This document shows positions 2,736-61,768 of a DNA stretch of 64,000 nt, in pieces. Position numbers and translations under genes: made by a program. Position 1 is the stretch's first letter; each line of letters starts with the position of its first letter. The notes beneath the pieces are model-generated. The model did not search any database. It saw only the letters and a program-made list of their open reading frames with translations, and had not been told where the DNA came from. Origin of the DNA: Candidatus Magasanikbacteria bacterium UBA922 (lineage in GTDB: Bacteria > Patescibacteriota > Patescibacteriia > Magasanikbacterales > UBA922); assembly GCA_002293825.1 (NCBI GenBank), contig DBDW01000011.1, forward strand, positions 9,436 through 73,435. The letters are read 5' to 3'.

Positions 2736-5036
2736 ATGCTTATAAGCAACGTGTCAAAAGATATGCGAATCAAAAGTGACGTATACGAATTTTTTGTAGA
2801 AGGAAAAAATCATCACCTATCCCACGTGTTGCTCCATATCGCATCCCCTGGAAAACCAGATGGAGAAAATCAGGGATATTTTTTTGTACTCGCCGAAATG
2901 GATAACCCCGAAGCTGCAATCCTTCACACCCTTGAAGACCTTATTCGAGATGGAGAAAATTTATACTATGGAGGATATGACGGTGAAACCATGCAGGCAC
3001 CCGATCCTGAAACACGACACTTTGAATCAGTCATTGAAAAACTCAATCGCAAAGCAAAAACATTACTATCAAATGAGCGAGCCTACAAAATTCACATGGC
3101 TGTCGGGGTGATACGAAACAATCGACTCTCATTTGCATATCGAGGAGAACTGTGCGCATTACTCGCATATATGAGTGCAGAAGGCCCTTCATATACCTCA
3201 ATCACAGACGAAGCATCGTATCCAGAGCACATGTTTTTTTCGTCAGTTATCGAAGGAAATTTTACTACAGACGAAGCGGTATACCTCTCTACCCCGCACA
3301 TCACCAAATATCTCTCTTCTGATCGTATCGCAAAAATGATTGTGGGAAAACCTGCAAAACAATCAATACAACAAATCCAAAAGACACTCGAAGGAATCTC
3401 ATCTGAATATTCATTCGGTGGTATTGTAATCACTGGTTCTGAAATACACACCGAGATACCCAAAGCCCCAAAACCAAACTACCGCACCAATATCGGATCA
3501 GAAGAATCAATGGATCGACTACTAGACACCACCCGCTCGACTGAAGACACTTTGTCACCAAAAGTCTTTTCTCATATTGCAAAAACATTTGCAGGAGGAT
3601 TCAAAAAAAACGAAGAATCAGAAGAAGATGTTCCTGTACTACATGCAACAAAAGAAACCAATCCAGGCAAATACCGCCGAAAACGACGCGCCGAACAAAT
3701 ACCTACATACGATACAGGGGGCTCATTATTAATTATACTCGGGAAAATAATCGTATGGACAACAAAAGCATTGTTCTACGTAATAAAAACACTAAGTATC
3801 GCACTTGGTAAATTCCTCGCAATCTTCTGGACACTTGCCACCAATTACAATGGGGGTAGAAAAATCCTACTTGAACAATACGCTGATGCACGACAGCGAA
3901 TGGTAGATAAATTCACCGCACTGGGAATCTTCGGAAAAATTCTTCTTCTCATTCTCATTATCGGAATTGGCATTCTCACTGGAAGTATTATATATACCAA
4001 AGAAAAAGAAAAAGTAATGGCTCGTGAAGAAGCATATGCATCTGAAATGGCTCTCCTTATCGATACAAAAAAAGAAATTGACGCATATGTGCTGTATGGC
4101 GATCATGCGAAAGCGCTTGAATCACTTCGTACAATAGACGCAAAACTTGCAACACTCACACATGACACACCAGAAAAACAAAAACGTGCAGATGATCTAA
4201 AAAGTGAATTACACACACTCCTCTTGAAAGTACAAAAAATCACCGCTATCATCCCTGAGAAAATAGTCGACATTCGAGAAGCGCACGAAAATGCACGCAC
4301 TGACGCACTCGTATTCATGGGTGATCGCTTGGTGGCAAGCGGCACAAACGATACAGGCCTATACTTCATCTCCACTCTTACCGGTCTCATCGAAAAGAAA
4401 AATGTAGAAACTGCACACCGTCTCGCATATGGTTACGTAGCAAAAGATGCCTCACAACTCGTATTCACCTCTGGAGATAATACAATCGTGGCATACTCCA
4501 CAGACACCGATAGTATTGCTTCAAAAACAATCACCTATCCCAATCAAAATGTCGTACTCTCGGATATTGCGCTCTACAATGGACGTCTCTATACACTCGA
4601 CCGAGCAAATGGAGCACTCTATCGCCACAATCCCACACAAATAGGTTTCGATAATGGTACCTCATGGGTAACCTCACAAACCGACCCGACACAATTAAAA
4701 AACGCAATCTCATTTGCACTCGATGGAGACCTCTACGCACTTACCGAAAACGGAAAAGTACTCAAATATTCAGCCGGGGTAGAGCAACTATTTACCATAC
4801 AAGGCCTTGACCCAGTCCTCGAATCCCCTACTCAAATCGAGACCAAAAGTGAATTTGCAAATATCTACATTCTCGAACCATCAAAAAAACGTATTATTGT
4901 GCTCGATAAAAATGGAAATTTCAAAAAACAATTCCAATCAGACACATGGATCAATCCTACCGGATTTGCAATTACAGACACCGAAAAAGAAGCATACGTA
5001 CTCGATGCTACGACCGTGTATAAATTTAAATTGTAG
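2736..5036 (+). CDS. hypothetical membrane protein with C-terminal beta-propeller-like repeats
   Basis: 766 aa. Two or three central TM helices (LLIILGKIIVWTTKALFYVIKTLSIALGKFLAIFW; ILLLILIIGIGILTGSIIY). The C-terminus has repeated YxLD / DGxLYxL blades. Confidence 0.5.
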   Translation: MLISNVSKDMRIKSDVYEFFVEGKNHHLSHVLLHIASPGKPDGENQGYFFVLAEMDNPEAAILHTLEDLIRDGENLYYGGYDGETMQAPDPETRHFESVIEKLNRKAKTLLSNERAYKIHMAVGVIRNNRLSFAYRGELCALLAYMSAEGPSYTSITDEASYPEHMFFSSVIEGNFTTDEAVYLSTPHITKYLSSDRIAKMIVGKPAKQSIQQIQKTLEGISSEYSFGGIVITGSEIHTEIPKAPKPNYRTNIGSEESMDRLLDTTRSTEDTLSPKVFSHIAKTFAGGFKKNEESEEDVPVLHATKETNPGKYRRKRRAEQIPTYDTGGSLLIILGKIIVWTTKALFYVIKTLSIALGKFLAIFWTLATNYNGGRKILLEQYADARQRMVDKFTALGIFGKILLLILIIGIGILTGSIIYTKEKEKVMAREEAYASEMALLIDTKKEIDAYVLYGDHAKALESLRTIDAKLATLTHDTPEKQKRADDLKSELHTLLLKVQKITAIIPEKIVDIREAHENARTDALVFMGDRLVASGTNDTGLYFISTLTGLIEKKNVETAHRLAYGYVAKDASQLVFTSGDNTIVAYSTDTDSIASKTITYPNQNVVLSDIALYNGRLYTLDRANGALYRHNPTQIGFDNGTSWVTSQTDPTQLKNAISFALDGDLYALTENGKVLKYSAGVEQLFTIQGLDPVLESPTQIETKSEFANIYILEPSKKRIIVLDKNGNFKKQFQSDTWINPTGFAITDTEKEAYVLDATTVYKFKL

Positions 5037-8452: not shown

Positions 8453-8455
8453 GAG

Positions 8456-8527
8456 TAGCGCTACGGGGAATCGAACCCCGGTTACCAGGATGAAAACCTG
8501 ATGTCCTAACCACTAGACGATAGCGCC
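8456..8527 (-). tRNA. tRNA-Glu (anticodon UUC)
   Basis: Cloverleaf read manually: GGCGCTA acceptor stem, anticodon loop TTTTCAT, T-loop GGTTCGATTCC. The CCA end is not encoded. 72 nt. Confidence 0.88.
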
Positions 8528-8528
8528 A

Positions 8529-8822
8529 TTAAAAAATTCTATTGTATAACTCTTCTTTCTTTTTACTATTTTTCTTCAACTCAATTTCTCGTTTCCGAGC
8601 TTGAGTCTTTGAAAGATACGCCTCATAATAAACCAATCTAAACGGAACTTTGTGCTTGATTGATTTTGTCTTCCCTTGATTATGCTCTACCAATCTTCTT
8701 CTCAAATCTTCAGTAGAACCGATATACACAGTCCGATCTTGAAGACTTTCGATAACATATGTATAAAACATAGCTCCCTCTATAGTAACAGGTACACAGG
8801 ATGTCAGCCAGAGGCTGATCAC
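8529..8822 (-). CDS. GIY-YIG nuclease family protein (UPF0213-like small endonuclease)
   Basis: ...MFYTYVIESLQDRTVYIGSTEDLRRRLVEHNQG...FRLVYYEAY...REIELKK are classical GIY-YIG motifs. The probable start is the internal Met at 8771. Confidence 0.8.
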   Translation of the reverse strand: MISLWLTSCVPVTIEGAMFYTYVIESLQDRTVYIGSTEDLRRRLVEHNQGKTKSIKHKVPFRLVYYEAYLSKTQARKREIELKKNSKKKEELYNRIF

Positions 8823-8833
8823 CCTTCGGGTGA

Positions 8834-8870
8834 AAAACCTGATGTCCTAACCACTAGACGATAGCACCAT
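8834..8870 (-). repeat. 37-bp partial duplicate of the 5' part of tRNA-Glu (1 mismatch), upstream of the GIY-YIG gene
   Basis: 8834-8870 matches 8493-8529 (aaaacctgatgtcctaaccactagacgatagc[g/a]ccat). It covers the 5' acceptor strand, D-arm and anticodon-stem 5' side. Confidence 0.7.
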
Positions 8871-10530: not shown

Positions 10531-13500
10531 TTATCCGCCACTAACTTCTATCGCCCCTTCCCCAAAAATTTCAGCAAGCTGTGCCACTACGGTATCAATC
10601 GGATCCACTAAAAATGGCATTTTGATATTTCCTCCTTCAACATGAATCAAAACCTCGTGAGATCCTGGATATTCACTGAGAATTTTTTTAACAGTCTCAG
10701 CATGTATTTTCAATAATTCCTTATTGGTCACAATAATAATCTGAGGTACAGTATATTCTTCAGGTTCTGGTACATACGAAACCGAACCACCAGACGCAAG
10801 TGATAAATACTGCGAAACCTCACGCACATTCTGTCGAGTAAGGGTATAAGCCTTTTCAACAAAAATTTTATTTTCCCCATCCTCTTTGGGTGTTTTACCT
10901 ACCACACATACCACATTCCCCACGACCCAGACATTCTTAGTCTGCTCATACGCTTTTGGAAATACGAGTAATTCCATCATACCTGTCATATCTTCAATCG
11001 TAACAAACATCATGATCGAACCTTTTTTGGTAATTTTCTTTTTGAGTGCAGCTACCACCCCTCCAGACACTACCCACATATCGCGTGCCGCATGTTCCAC
11101 GTCAGCAAGCATGGTTAATTTACCCTTCATCTGTGACTCGTAAAAAGCAAACGGATGACTCGAAAGATAAATACCCAGTAAATCTTTCTCCCATTTCAAT
11201 TTCTGATCAAGCGTTGCCTCTGGAGCAGGCTTGAGGGTTACTTTTGCATCAAGCGCAATTGAAGTGCCTGAAAACAAAGAATTCTGATTCGTAATCTTAC
11301 GTTCTCTATGCTGTCTCAAAAATCCCAAAATATTTTCACTATTAGAAAGTAACAATCCACGATCAAACCCAAAAGTATCTAATGCGCCGGCCTGAGCAAG
11401 ACTCTCAAGTGATTTTTTATTCAAATCTTTATCATCAATCCGTTCAAGTAAATTCTCCAGACTTGTATACCTTCCATGTGTTTTTCGCTCTTGATAAATC
11501 ACCTCACAGATATGTTCACCTACATTCTTAATTGCGGTCAAACCGAATCGAATACGACCTTTCTCACCAGGCTTCGATACCATTGCAAACGATCTAAAAC
11601 TTTCATTCACATCTGGAGGCAATACTTCGATCCCGATTCGACGACACTCTCCGACAATCTGTGCAATCTTGTCATTATCTCCAGATTCAGCCTGAAGCAC
11701 TGCCGTCATATACTGGACAGGATAATGCGCTTTCATATACGCAGTCTGATACGCCACAATTCCATAACTCGCCGCATGTGCTTTATTGAATCCATATGCA
11801 GCAAAAGGTTCAATTGCCCTCCACAATTCATCAATTTTTTCCTGCTTCAATTTTCCATATTCTTTACAGCCTTTGTAAAACTTTTCTTTTTGCAATGCCA
11901 TTTCCTCAGGAATCTTCTTACCCATGGCTTTGCGAAATTTATCTGCCTCCATCCAATCATATCCTGCAAGCTCAATTGCAGTAAGCATCACATCGTCTTG
12001 ATACACCAAAAGACCATATGACGCACCAAGAATTTTCTCAAGACGAGGATCAGGATATGTAACAGTCTCTGGATTATATTTTCGTTTAATATATTCAGGA
12101 ATTGATTCCATGGGACCTGGTCGATACAATGCGACCATCGCCATAATATCTTCAATTCGGTTCGGCTTCAATTCTTTGACCCAGCGTGTCATCCCAGACC
12201 CACCAAGCTGAAACGTGCCCATAGTTTCTCCACGAGCAAGCATGTCGAACGTGGTTTTATCGTCAAGTGGTAAATTATAAATATCAATTTTTTCACCTGT
12301 AGTTTTTTCTACAATCACAACCGCATTTCCAAGAATTGCCAAATTTCTAATTCCAAGAAAATCATTTTTCAAAACCCCCGCAGTCTCAACAGCCTTCATT
12401 TCGTATTGTGTCGTAATTTTTTCTCCTCCGGTTTCACGCTGGATTGGGGTGAAATCCGTAAGCGGAGTCGGCGAGATCACGACACCTGCCGCATGGATCG
12501 ACGTATGACGCGCACATCCTTCTACTTTTTGCGCCAAATCAAGCAAACGCTTAACCTCAGCATTTGTATCATAAATTTTTTTCAAATCAGGCTCTTCCTT
12601 GAGCGCACGCTCAATCGTCATCGGAAAACCTTGCGCACCCTGTGGAATCAATTTAGCCACCTGATCACAAAAACTATACGAAAGTCCCAATGCTCGCCCC
12701 ACATCACGCACACTTGCTCGAGCTGCCATGGTTCCAAACGTAATAATCTGCGCCACCCGATCAGCGCCATATTTCTTCGTAACATACTCGATCATCTCCT
12801 CACGACGATCGTCGGCAAAATCAGTATCAATATCAGGTGCAGATGGACGAAACGGATTGAGAAAACGCTCAAACGGAAGATTGAATCGCATCGGATCAAC
12901 AGTCGTAATTCCAAGAACATACGACACAAGCGAGCCTGCTGCTGAACCTCGAGTAGATTCCACAATTCCTACTTTTTTTGCATATCCTACATAATCTGCC
13001 ACACACAAAAAATACGGCGAATATCCTTTGGTCTTGATAATGTCAAGCTCATATTCAATACGTTGCTTGATTTCATCAGTAACAGGATTATAAAAATTAC
13101 CCACACATCGATACGCCTCATCACGCAAATGTTCATCATGTGTTTTTCCTGGAGGAACCTCAATTGGTGCAAAATGCCACACATTGAGTGGAATCTGAAT
13201 ATCCACCCGCGCAGCAATTTTCAATGTATTCTCAATCGCTTCTGGTACATGACGAAAACGAGAAATAATATCATCGCCCAGATTAAGAGAACGATCTACC
13301 TGACGATAGTCTTCACGATTAGTATATTCCACTTTCCAACCTTCAGATATACAGCGCAAAATATCCTGCGCCTCAGCATCATCAGGGTTGAGATAGTGTA
13401 CATCACGAGTTACGACCAACCCAACCCCACACTCTTTTGAAAGCTCAATTAAGGCAGTGTTAACCTGTAATTGCCCTTGAATTCCAGGATGATCTTGAAG

Positions 13501-48746: not shown

Positions 48747-48834
48747 GGAGAGGTGGCTGAGCGGTTGAAGGCGGCAGTCTTGAAAACTGTTGTAGGCTTT
48801 TAGTCTACCGTGGGTTCGAATCCCACCCTCTCCG
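48747..48834 (+). tRNA. tRNA-Ser (anticodon UGA)
   Basis: Class II tRNA with long variable arm. Acceptor GGAGAGG/CCTCTCC with G73. Anticodon loop CTTGAAA. Confidence 0.85.
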
Positions 48835-48883
48835 CACAAAAGACAATATTGTGGTACGTTTCAGTATACGCTATTGGCAAAAT

Positions 48884-48972
48884 GGAGAGGTGTCAGAGTG
48901 GTCTATCGTGCAGCTTTGCTAAAGCTGTGTCCGAATAATATCGGACCGAGGGTTCGAATCCCTCCCTCTCCG
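48884..48972 (+). tRNA. tRNA-Ser (anticodon GCU)
   Basis: Same acceptor stem. Anticodon loop TTGCTAA. Long variable arm. Confidence 0.85.
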
Positions 48973-49001
48973 CATGGAGAAAAACGCTACTACACGACAA
49001 T

Positions 49002-49088
49002 GGAGAGGTGGTTGAGTGGTTGAAAACAGCAGTTTACTAAACTGCCGTCCCTTTCGGGGGACCGTGGGTTCGAATCCCACCCTCTCCG
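49002..49088 (+). tRNA. tRNA-Ser-like, unusual anticodon loop TTACTAA (anticodon ACU)
   Basis: Same acceptor stem, G73 and long variable arm. The anticodon stem GCAGT/ACTGC gives a 7-nt loop TTACTAA. It differs from the GCU gene's loop by G34 to A34. Confidence 0.65.
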
Positions 49089-49173
49089 CACAGATAGACA
49101 GTATCCACCATTTGGCATACTGTCTTTTTTTTAGTATAGTAAAAATCCACTTGGATCACATAATACCTCTTAT

Positions 49174-60100: not shown

Positions 60101-60494
60101 TATTTGCCACATCACGAACCATGACCCACCCCAATCGCACCACACTCACGTCAATATAATTATTGTACGATGCCAAGGTGATAAAAAATCGCAAGAAAAA
60201 AATCGCAAGAAAAATACACAATTTTGCCAATTCCAAAAGAATACTCGCCAAAATACGCCCGACCCATCCAAACACAGTCGTAAAATCAATCGCCGCAAAC
60301 ACCAAAGTTACCGACACAATACTAATCAAAAAAATACCTACCAGAAAAACCGGCCACCACGTCCGTTTTTTGAGTACATTCGGAAATAATTTGTCGTACG
60401 CTTGACGCACACCGCTCACAAACGATGCAAAAAAGCGTTGCATGTGATGATAATTAGAATACTTGAGACCTAGTATACCACAAAACAAAAACAC
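57111..60494 (-). CDS. VirB6/TrbL-like polytopic membrane protein with ~700-aa coiled-coil-rich C-terminal extension
   Basis: The N-terminal ~430 aa has at least 8 TM helices in TrbL/VirB6-like arrangement. The C-terminal part is K/E-rich with predicted coiled coils. Confidence 0.55.
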   Translation of the reverse strand: MFLFCGILGLKYSNYHHMQRFFASFVSGVRQAYDKLFPNVLKKRTWWPVFLVGIFLISIVSVTLVFAAIDFTTVFGWVGRILASILLELAKLCIFLAIFFLRFFITLASYNNYIDVSVVRLGWVMVRDVANMFFIVGLLVIAFATILGLEGYEWKRGLVKIVLMAILINFSNLIAQLVIDVAHIFTITFLNPVSATAGGNLINLFQFDKILGLVSGDALGTTPENASLALFAASVMSFLFALLAAVTIGAYLVTMIARIVVLWALIILSPLAFMLYALPKGEDYAREWWSEFTKHVIVAPIMVFFLWLAFATFGTGQIISEIQSGPNVIKIDATGENAQFQQSVSILEITTWENMASFLLGIAFLWVGIKKTQDTGATGSGLIGGAVDFTKKVATIATGYAAGRWLVGKGVEVGGAYGKLAASKTGLLAVKDYFGREKLRRDAALKKVDYLRDMKARAVTAKGGGFAGLFAPDAKTRAMATEKTEMIEKQKETAFNRQRIDARVQISGEQRQKFDKNLENILIKNIDPKEAEKIKNISDPELRLEELSKKFNVDKLREFQEQAAESTPFVATHLDQMSFKEIENKLKGDEDKFFGIMNLGYVMKETREFEEALEKANEELVQNTVLELVAIQKLSQQLGKTENEIRKGNYQDQIQAKKKEIKEMDYGYDYEKKEFKTKYAQKNFEKFINDNREEAIKNIDEKQRVNVMADVIANNPQWLKIQAQTSIKSAEQKTKKAESEEKNIGLKISDILRGLQGKEMDEIRNMERAKISEELKELEGISYEEIFELFQRNLKDIRELTDKQKNGETLSDQEKDFLKNRSQSQARVVASIQQRGYHHSMVGALRSFNQSIGDTSYDEIIDDEDGAGKLLLGALTARSATELKTPEDASRVQEEYRKNLKEKAGILFRTIQKGVQDSAEQKGNIHLFHQFAEGRNEFGAKVVGAAVAMKNGVGTKGVLGTGKKEDGVQMIKSDVKDYMEPNFDILSAADGREYTNITASGVTIKQRAKGQIATIARIRSADGIKKMGTPKLRYLLGAREYGESGLYDETSNSFHKVPPDFKEEWKPVFSEWKKISDPQNQDESPAVKANVLSAWKELYTQFGFPPEKIGALSHRELVDIARKSGML

Positions 60495-60512
60495 ACGCTA
60501 TCAAAGGTGTGA

Positions 60513-60536
60513 GTCATTCCCGCGAAAGCGGGAATC
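60513..60536. repeat. 24-bp terminal inverted repeat, left copy (GTCATTCCCGCGAAAGCGGGAATC; itself a hairpin)
   Basis: Exact reverse-complement copy at 60752-60775. Confidence 0.7.
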
Positions 60537-60541
60537 CTCAT

Positions 60542-60737
60542 TTAAGAAGCACGGTCCAGCCAATTTGGATTTTCCTTTTCAATAAGCGAAATTTTCCACG
60601 TTCGATTCCATTTCTTCAGCTGTTTCTCTCGAAAAATACTTATGTTCAGTAACTCGCCGCTGTAAATCATTAGTCATACCAATATACAAAACACCATTTT
60701 TTCTACTTGCCAATATATAAACATAAAAATATCTCAT
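60542..60737 (-). pseudogene. degenerate GIY-YIG nuclease gene (frameshifted, internally deleted)
   Basis: Manual translation gives MRYFYVYILASRKNGVLYIGMTNDLQRRVTEHKYFSRETAEEMESNVENFAY*. After a -1 shift it reads LIEKENPNWLDRAS*. This is a GIY-YIG core plus the family C-terminal tail, but it lacks the central ~20 aa. Confidence 0.6.
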
Positions 60738-60751
60738 ACCCCTCCAAATTA

Positions 60752-60775
60752 GATTCCCGCTTTCGCGGGAATGAC
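60752..60775. repeat. 24-bp terminal inverted repeat, right copy (GATTCCCGCTTTCGCGGGAATGAC)
   Basis: Reverse complement of 60513-60536. Confidence 0.7.
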
Positions 60776-60778
60776 ATA

Positions 60779-61768
60779 TTAAGATAGTTTTTTGATTTTC
60801 ACGACAAAAAATCCTTCAATCTGTGGTGTAGGAAGAATTCGCAAAGCGTGCGTCCGCACATCATCACGAAATGTAAGCGCTTTAAAAGCATGTACGATGG
60901 GTGCGCGTGGAATGTCTAACACAATCGGCTCGACCGACGCATCGGGAGTACGATCGAGAAATTTTTGTACCTGTACTTCATTTTCTTCAGGAGCAAATGT
61001 ACAGGTAGAATACACGAGCACTCCACCTGGACGGAGCATGTGCCATGCAGCTCGAAGCAAAATTCGCTGTGTATAGGCCATTTCCTTGATTTTTCGCTCG
61101 CTCCAATACCCGAAACTCTTGGGATCAGTGGTGTCAAACCGAGCTTCAGCACTACACGGAGCATCGAGCAAGATTTTATCAAAATAATCAGTATATTCAC
61201 GAGACAATTGGGCTCCATGCTCCATCCGAAGTGTGAACTGCCATTCGGGAGACTCATCAGTTACTCCCAAAAGCTCCATATTATGCTTGAGTTTGAAAAA
61301 ACGTATCTTGTTCTTATCATTGGCCACAAGTTCACCGTGTCTACCCATCAACGCAGTAATCTGACTCGTCTTACTACCTGGCGCCGCAGTAAGATCCAAT
61401 ACCCGATCTCCTGATTTCGGCTCAAGCACAAGCGGAGGTACCATACTCGCAAGACTCTGGATATATATCTTCCCCTCTGCATAGATGTGACACTCAGTAA
61501 GTTCACGCTTGCTTTTGTTCAACAAAACATACGCATCGGGATACCATGCGATTTTTTGCACTTTGAATCCATGTGAGGATAAAAATGGAATAACCTCAGT
61601 AGACGAAGCCTTTAATCGATTTATCCGAAAAGTGGTAGGGCGACCCACAAATGTCTTCTCAATCTCACGAAACCGAGATAGACCAAACAATGCAGTCATT
61701 CGTTCGACAAACTTCTCAGGCAATTCTTTCCTCACTCCATGACTATGTTTCTTCTTTTTCTTCGCCAT
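60779..61768 (-). CDS. rRNA m5C methyltransferase, RsmB/RsmF (NOL1/NOP2/Sun) family
   Basis: SAM-binding motif VLDLTAAPGSKTSQI. Catalytic region CTFAPEENE. Basic N-terminus. Confidence 0.8.
   Translation of the reverse strand: MAKKKKKHSHGVRKELPEKFVERMTALFGLSRFREIEKTFVGRPTTFRINRLKASSTEVIPFLSSHGFKVQKIAWYPDAYVLLNKSKRELTECHIYAEGKIYIQSLASMVPPLVLEPKSGDRVLDLTAAPGSKTSQITALMGRHGELVANDKNKIRFFKLKHNMELLGVTDESPEWQFTLRMEHGAQLSREYTDYFDKILLDAPCSAEARFDTTDPKSFGYWSERKIKEMAYTQRILLRAAWHMLRPGGVLVYSTCTFAPEENEVQVQKFLDRTPDASVEPIVLDIPRAPIVHAFKALTFRDDVRTHALRILPTPQIEGFFVVKIKKLS

Follow-up and report, generated by a model that had tools for sequence, protein, structure and literature searches.

The Neisseria Transformation Sequence (NTS), CGTCATTCCCGCGMAVGCGGGAATCYRG, is a directional hairpin motif described by Chenal et al. 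2025 (Nat Commun, PMC11893778) that contains the older dRS3 palindrome ATTCCC-N8-GGGAAT. The NTS and its relatives, the Ssn-related motifs (SRM), are spatially associated with a single gene, ssnA, whose product is a 94-amino-acid (aa) single-domain GIY-YIG protein of CDD family cd10448. NTS-ssnA-NTS is given as the usual arrangement: an SRM flanks 71% of ssnA homologues on at least one side, and 42% have one on each side (PMC11893778). Here we describe a 263-bp unit with this layout, at 60513-60775 of a 64,000-nucleotide stretch (contig DBDW01000011.1, positions 9,436 to 73,435; hereafter the window) from a genome of Candidatus Magasanikbacteria, a lineage of the Candidate Phyla Radiation (CPR)/Patescibacteria. 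Sequence comparison indicates that the unit is very probably a dead copy of an Ssn cassette (NTS-ssn-NTS). We report its anatomy, its deletion, its homology, the motifs flanking its relatives, its presence and absence among related genomes, and a mismatch in identity between the unit and its flanks.

The N. meningitidis SsnA protein binds its motif only as single-stranded DNA (ssDNA) and in one orientation, cuts a few nucleotides upstream, and has no action on double-stranded DNA (dsDNA) or RNA (PMC11893778). The SsnA mutants Y6A, Y17A and E64A keep binding and lose cutting. Three more homologues, one of them from Wolbachia, act likewise on their own motifs, giving four enzymes in all, and in Neisseria SsnA reduces transformation by motif-bearing DNA (PMC11893778). 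The authors noted that NTS-ssnA-NTS resembles an insertion sequence, likened it to repetitive extragenic palindromic (REP)/RAYT systems and to IS200/IS605, and left its mobility hypothetical (PMC11893778). Membership of the family was assigned where blastp to SsnA (CAX49033.1) covered at least 75% at E < 1e-10, or where cd10448 was the top CDD match, and the paper makes no mention of the CPR or of Magasanikbacteria (PMC11893778).

The window has exactly two copies of the 24-mer GTCATTCCCGCGAAAGCGGGAATC, a plus-strand one at 60513-60536 and a minus-strand one at 60752-60775. They form a perfect inverted repeat with arms 215 nt apart, and the whole unit measures 263 bp. No chance match to the 24-mer was found in 100 dinucleotide shuffles with up to 3 mismatches tolerated, and a looser pattern, ATTCCCGC-N4-GCGGGAAT, returned the same two positions and nowhere else in the 64 kb. 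As ssDNA each copy folds into an 8-bp stem, ATTCCCGC/GCGGGAAT, with a 4-nt loop of GAAA or TTTC; the folding energies of -9 to -11.6 kcal/mol (z = -4.6 to -6.7) were equalled by no shuffle. An earlier reading of the window, made from its letters without database searches (the sequence-only reading), had proposed a discrete 263-bp unit with perfect 24-bp inverted repeats, each of them a hairpin, and the exact matches at both ends and the ssDNA folding bear this out. Taken in the direction of the gene, the parts of the unit are:

60752..60775, minus strand: upstream NTS/SRM hairpin, reading GTCATTCCCGCGAAAGCGGGAATC on the gene strand (-9 kcal/mol, z = -4.6).

60738..60751, minus strand: spacer TAATTTGGAGGGGT, with the ribosome-binding site (RBS) GGAGGGG at 60745-60739, followed by the ATG at 60737.

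60639..60737, minus strand: authentic 5' part of ssn, codons 1-33, MRYFYVYILASRKNGVLYIGMTNDLQRRVTEHK, with the GIY and YIG motifs.

60638..60639, minus strand: deletion junction, where 83 bp are lost relative to the intact copy in a related genome (L121), the missing segment being TCCCGAATGG...AATGAAGC.

60542..60638, minus strand: 3' part of ssn, IFREKQLKKWNRTWKISLIEKENPNWLDRAS, in another frame than the ATG, with the stop codon TAA at 60542-60544.

60513..60536, plus strand: downstream NTS/SRM hairpin, reading GTCATTCCCGCGAAAGCGGGAATC (-11.3 to -11.6 kcal/mol), inverted relative to the upstream copy.

The upstream hairpin begins 3 nt past the stop codon of the neighbouring rsmB gene and the downstream hairpin starts 5 nt beyond the ssn stop codon; the outer flanks in the window read ...TAATAT / element / TCACAC.... 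The upstream hairpin is directional, and its cleavable orientation sits on the coding strand. At 24/24 positions the 24-mer agrees with the core of the NTS consensus (PMC11893778), and the hairpin core ATTCCCGCGAAAGCGGGAAT exactly satisfies the definition of dRS3. The published SRM pattern matches 60512-60539, the downstream copy; simulated windows average 0.2 matches each. No T-run follows either hairpin and the terminator scan was empty there, and an Rfam scan of the whole window at the gathering threshold returned tRNAs only, with nothing at the 263-bp unit.

A search with RsmB as probe places the host among Candidatus Magasanikbacteria. The state of the gene became clear from the closest related genome, L121 (RsmB 80% identical), which carries at the orthologous site an intact 92-aa ssn gene between the identical two 24-mers, in a 346-bp unit. 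Aligned with this intact orthologue, the window unit is the L121 unit minus a single 83-bp deletion (alignment columns 207-289) that takes away about 28 codons and shifts the frame. The sequence-only reading had described a GIY-YIG open reading frame (ORF) that was both frameshifted and internally deleted; both defects are present because of this one deletion at 60639/60638. The called 52-aa ORF (60579-60737, minus strand) matches Pfam GIY-YIG with E = 7e-9 and is out of frame past the deletion, down to 60579. By tblastn, frame translation and alignments, the 3' part includes the conserved REKQ glutamate, now out of frame. Because some 28 codons of the catalytic core are removed and the frame is shifted, no active nuclease could be made from the window copy, and any product would be inactive because the metal-binding glutamate lies out of frame. 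The hairpin-spacer-RBS-ATG order of the 5' end is also found in L121 and in a second locus, L001. The deletion is not peculiar to one assembly: its junction is identical in L008, L009, L010 and L134, the unit sequence is identical across these four assemblies, aligned or directly read, and the deletion-dependent 52-aa ORF was found on 10/10 contigs read.

A search with two joined fragments of the window protein retrieved 869 homologues, with lengths of 92-115 aa among the 120 matches listed. The aligned homologues (93-103 aa) have in common the C-terminal motif REKQLKKWxRxWKxxLIExxNPxWxDL. The intact 92-aa orthologue in L121 consists of a single GIY-YIG domain (Pfam, residues 4-76, E = 1.5e-15) and ends directly after it, and its residues Y7, Y18 and E65 are spaced like Y6, Y17 and E64, the catalytic residues of the N. 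meningitidis enzyme. We inspected the DNA around eight homologue loci (L001, L004, L006, L035, L084, L121, L142 and L152) and found NTS-type hairpins on both sides of the gene in 6/8. The layout of hairpin, gene and inverted hairpin is seen in L001, L004, L035 and L121; in L006 and L152 NTS-type hairpins flank the gene on both sides, and L142 and L084 have no clean inverted pair. The stem in L001 is a compensatory variant, ATCCCC/GGGGAT, within GTCATCCCCGCGAAAGCGGGGATC. L035, from an organism of 69% GC whose protein is a 57% identical homologue, has the complete NTS consensus (28/28) on both sides. The sequence-only reading had also raised the prospect of relatives whose full-length gene lacks flanking repeats; relatives with an intact gene, L121 among them, have the repeats beside it.

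Read from the motif match, the GIY-YIG domain, the flanking layout and the catalytic spacing, the window gene is very probably a member of the Ssn family. The sequence-only reading took the element for a previously unrecognised family, a claim that falls since NTS-ssnA-NTS was published in 2025 with the 24-mer as its NTS core (PMC11893778). With the architecture already known, what is new here, judged by these sequences, is a further example of it, not a new mobile or transposon family.

Other resources gave no more specific name. PADLOC and PHROGs returned generic or sub-threshold GIY-YIG matches, with no specific family or defence-system assignment. A search of PDB sequences found no Ssn structure and only distant UPF0213 proteins; the match to the UPF0213 protein 1ZG2 is weak (E = 3.5e-5, 27.5 bits), with the fold class in common, and the solved UPF0213/YhbQ-type proteins (1ZG2, 1YWL) do not have the Ssn-type C-terminal W-R-WK-LIE-NP-W-DL motif. 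Among loci carrying the 24-mer on viral contigs, where Neisseria ssnA was sought, we found only two Ssn genes, both of high-GC organisms.

The homologue loci also showed varied settings. On L006, a 114-kb metagenome contig of 52% GC, two tandem Ssn-family genes (3001-3312 and 3717-4028, within 3001-4028) each follow their own GTCATTCCCGAAC... hairpin. Ssn cassettes also lie inside operons: in L152 (2501-2785) the cassette separates hsdM from hsdS in a type I restriction-modification system, and in L004 (3001-3288) it comes directly after rpsL-rpsG.

In the window the cassette lies, as the sequence-only reading had placed it, between the rsmB stop codon and the start of a type IV secretion system (T4SS) membrane gene. 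The upstream neighbour encodes an RsmB/F methyltransferase (60779-61768, Pfam E = 1e-42), and the downstream neighbour, a membrane-protein gene of 1110-1127 aa, heads a cluster with PrgI, TraC-like and VirB4-like genes. A further feature separates the cassette from that cluster:

60480..60511, minus strand: CACAC...GTGTG hairpin with a T-run, host context outside the element, ahead of the membrane gene of the T4SS cluster with its promoter region and its ATG at 60443.

Neither a simple terminator scan nor a promoter scan flagged anything at 60480-60511. The hairpin and its T-run are visible in the fold of the window and are kept in relatives at which the site is empty, and from its form it looks like a terminator.

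Presence and absence of the cassette vary among relatives. L123, L125 and L126 have an empty rsmB-T4SS spacer: about 28 nt after the rsmB stop codon comes the CACAC...GTGTG hairpin with its T-run, followed by the T4SS gene. The edges of the empty sites coincide with the outer repeat ends or lie close to them. At the same site L124 (11015-11313) has a different, independently decayed Ssn cassette, of the L001 type, that has lost about 16 codons internally near its 3' end and whose ends are mismatched, the stem being ATCCCC/GGGGAT on the upstream side and ATTCCC/GGGAAT on the downstream side. In L122 the place of the Ssn cassette is taken by a gene for a 135-aa DUF559 (Vsr-like) endonuclease (11081-11488, orthologous to window spacer 60444-60778; Pfam E = 1.5e-32), preceded by a different GC-rich hairpin, TCCTCCCCTCTTAGGGGAGGA. 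From these comparisons small nuclease genes appear to have landed repeatedly in the rsmB-T4SS spacer of this lineage. We note that L121, L122, L125, L126 and L127 are GTDB representative metagenome-assembled genomes whose titles name an 'uncultured Gammaproteobacteria bacterium'; in RsmB and in gene order they agree with Candidatus Magasanikbacteria, and the titles look like mislabels.

The identity of the unit between window and L121 is out of step with that of the genes around it. The two units agree at 258/263 positions (98.1%), as against 72.3% for rsmB and 77.7% for the downstream gene. For comparison, the intact cassettes of L001 and L160, which belong to a related lineage, have a common site that differs from that of the window, and come from hosts of similar divergence, are 87.4% identical with flanks at 71-77%. 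Because the similarity of the window and L121 units is greater than conservation alone would give, and one partner is a pseudogene, the comparison indicates a recent lateral exchange of the cassette between related species, and this was probably how the window copy originated.

For the activity of the enzyme and the position of its cut we rely on the literature, and for the arrival of the cassette on comparison of genomes. The intact 346-bp form, as in L121, would encode a 92-aa single-domain GIY-YIG Ssn nuclease that, by analogy with the Neisseria and Wolbachia enzymes, is expected to bind the flanking hairpin motif only when it is single-stranded and only in one orientation. By the same analogy the cut would fall a few nucleotides 5' of the motif, and dsDNA and RNA would be left untouched. 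Transformation, conjugation, and replication or repair are examples of occasions on which ssDNA might be offered to it. Read from the sequence, the inverted motifs put the cleavable orientation on the coding strand upstream and on its complement downstream, so that each strand would be cut once, in both cases just beyond the end of the cassette. The cassette would have arrived between the rsmB stop codon and the terminator-like hairpin before the T4SS gene, by recent lateral exchange with a related species, and would afterwards have decayed and become fixed. With its 83-bp deletion the window copy is predicted to make no active nuclease; both of its hairpins are intact, with no cognate enzyme encoded within the window, and they would be relics unless another ssn gene sits elsewhere in the genome. 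The sequence-only reading had called the gene a decayed passenger ORF. Decayed it is, but the intact gene is no passenger, being, by analogy with the published enzymes (PMC11893778), the nuclease that recognises the flanking hairpins as ssDNA.

Several observations weigh against the identification of the unit as an Ssn cassette or against its history as told here. NCBIfam holds no specific model and gave only generic GIY-YIG matches below cut-off, and the upstream hairpin misses the published SRM pattern, solely at the last degenerate base. Ssn specificity varies among homologues, which makes the predicted cut position in this lineage an extrapolation by analogy. The exchange is read from a single contig of 8.5 kb, the metagenome-assembled L121, in which 100 N stand just downstream of the element, and a chimeric assembly of this contig is possible. 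Window and L121 also agree almost completely over about 28 nt of the left flank and about 40 nt of the right. Since these near flanks are so alike, homologous replacement of a short segment explains the pattern as well as transposition does, and the exchange may have been of that kind and not a transposition.

A stronger claim would be that the NTS-ssn-NTS cassette is a unit truly moving between species, of which the window holds a freshly dead copy. The identity of 98% against 72-78% in the flanks, the empty sister sites, and a slot that elsewhere holds a second Ssn lineage and a DUF559 gene all speak for it, and we hold it tentatively, as a possibility that we would sooner doubt than accept on comparative data of this kind. 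If it holds, the mobility hypothesised by the discoverers of Ssn would gain its first comparative evidence. A puzzle would also arise, namely how the cassette comes to be copied when its product is a 92-aa hydrolase for which no joining activity is known; one option would be that Ssn nicks ssDNA just outside each end during transformation, conjugation or replication, leading to biased recombination.

Traces of movement of the usual kind were sought at several scales. The target-site duplications that the sequence-only reading had suggested looking for did not turn up: the ends in the window, L121, L124 and L001 have no direct repeat in common, and no conserved target motif was found outside the hairpins. 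There is no second copy of the unit within the 64-kb window, and in about 215 kb from 13 related genomes NTS-type hairpins occur solely beside ssn genes. The neighbours of the pseudogene are the same on all 10 contigs read, and exact-sequence look-up of two other well-sampled Ssn proteins (P0086 and P0103) gave one fixed context each, across 17-24 contigs. A metagenome scan with the pattern of hairpin, spacer, RBS and ATG returned one contig, the same locus of the same organism, with no new insertion sites, and the PALP-NUDIX site, home of the L001/L160 cassette, is absent from the sequence examined, the window and 13 related loci. Given the lack of a target-site duplication, the lone copy in the window and the constant context, the unit is a fixed, dead, single-copy cassette and not a multicopy miniature element. 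Of the small mobile element proposed by the sequence-only reading, the insertion-like character stands, in the empty sites and the identity mismatch, and the miniature multicopy character does not.

These results bear directly on the possibility that the unit is a non-autonomous miniature inverted-repeat transposable element (MITE) of a new multicopy family, moved in trans by a GIY-YIG transposase. Several features are those that a MITE would present: a small size with terminal inverted repeats, a decayed internal ORF, presence and absence at an orthologous site among relatives, and an element far more alike between species than the flanking genes. Many dispersed copies would be expected too, and the window has one copy and two hairpins; the related genomes keep the hairpins beside ssn genes, the contexts of the pseudogene and of the two other Ssn proteins do not change, no target site is duplicated, and the family is one already described (PMC11893778). 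We consider a MITE highly unlikely. A transposase must join DNA ends, moreover, and no GIY-YIG enzyme is known to do so.

A free-standing GIY-YIG homing endonuclease gene of the I-TevI/Seg type would cut an empty dsDNA allele and be copied in by repair, with the hairpins incidental. The intergenic slot between conserved genes, occupied likewise by homologues between rpsG and the next gene or between hsdM and hsdS, would suit such a gene, as would the other small nuclease gene (DUF559) in the same slot in L122, and near-identical short flanks in window and L121 would fit co-conversion. There are also weak matches to profiles of group I intron endonucleases and of phage GIY-YIG homing endonucleases, but they lie far under cut-off: for the homing endonuclease profile TIGR01453 the score is 24.2 bits where the cut-off stands at 56.05, and the match covers just the N-terminal motif. 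Characterised Ssn members neither bind nor cut dsDNA (PMC11893778). The 92-aa protein, moreover, is a catalytic domain alone, without the DNA-binding domain that homing endonucleases need, and the hairpins are not incidental because their sequence is conserved across organisms of 40% to 69% GC. Homing is on these grounds an exceedingly unlikely origin.

It is equally hard to credit, and extremely improbable, that the hairpins are host regulatory or RNA-stabilising structures (terminators, attenuators or REP-like protectors of mRNA for rsmB and the T4SS operon) with a secondary link to the GIY-YIG gene: the upstream one does follow rsmB by 3 nt, both are stable, one has a GAAA loop, and REP elements stabilise upstream mRNA, but relatives with an empty site do without these hairpins, a separate terminator-like hairpin and T-run is conserved in relatives that have no element, and the hairpins accompany ssn genes in unrelated genomic contexts. 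The reading of both hairpins as terminators was rejected, there being no T-run, no scan match and that separate conserved terminator-like hairpin.

If the unit is a dead Ssn cassette, its proper annotation would be a pseudogenised ssn gene (Ssn-family ssDNA nuclease) with two NTS/SRM sites. The Ssn family and its near-invariant recognition hairpin would then reach into the CPR/Patescibacteria, where the cassette has a minimal form of one gene and two sites with the motif not spread through the genome. The mismatch of 98% against 72%, together with the empty sites, offers comparative support for the published idea that the cassette has lateral mobility, at present or in the recent past.

The window also holds the second GIY-YIG gene seen by the sequence-only reading, at 8529-8771 on the minus strand. 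It encodes 80 aa and has neither the Ssn C-terminal motif nor NTS hairpins, and exact-protein look-up found its product in the same organism only. The gene ends 1 nt before tRNA-Glu(TTC) (8455-8527) and is preceded by a degenerate tRNA-like copy (8799-8868; Rfam tRNA 21.5 bits, E = 0.09; region 8455-8868, minus strand) that nearly matches the 5' half of tRNA-Glu over roughly its first 36 nt. From this arrangement it looks as if a small nuclease gene was inserted into or next to the tRNA-Glu gene, duplicating its 5' half. Elsewhere in the window three tRNA-Ser genes lie in a row (48747-49089, plus strand), one of them with the anticodon ACT, unusual in a bacterial tRNA-Ser set.

Set beside known systems, the cassette has partial likenesses to several. 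With I-TevI and SegA-G it has in common the GIY-YIG fold, an intergenic location and signs of lateral spread, whereas Ssn lacks a DNA-binding domain, its characterised members do not act on dsDNA, and the profile matches are sub-cut-off. IS200/IS605 elements likewise have subterminal hairpins recognised in ssDNA and make no target-site duplication; in contrast, their ends are not mutual inverted repeats, both cleavages fall on one strand, the transposase is of the HUH type and the elements are usually multicopy, while the window cassette is single-copy with its motifs on opposite strands. REP/RAYT comes closer in organisation, as a small nuclease gene between inverted hairpin copies recognised as ssDNA, single-copy and stably placed. 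RAYT, however, is an HUH/Y1 enzyme that cleaves and rejoins, whereas Ssn is a GIY-YIG hydrolase without known strand transfer, and the two have no homology. The dRS3 or neisserial intergenic mosaic elements (ATTCCC-N8-GGGAAT) agree in the hairpin core, ATTCCCGCGAAAGCGGGAAT; they are abundant, clustered and genome-wide in Neisseria, unlike the two copies tied to one gene here. From NTS-ssnA-NTS itself the window copy differs as a pseudogene with an 83-bp deletion in a CPR host, with an activity assigned by analogy only and with the motif confined to the cassette ends, as against hundreds of copies in pathogenic Neisseria. It agrees with NTS-ssnA-NTS in a 24-nt core identical to the Neisseria NTS, in an inverted motif on each side, in a single-domain GIY-YIG protein of about 92-94 aa with equal Tyr/Tyr/Glu spacing, and in a layout that recurs in many phyla.

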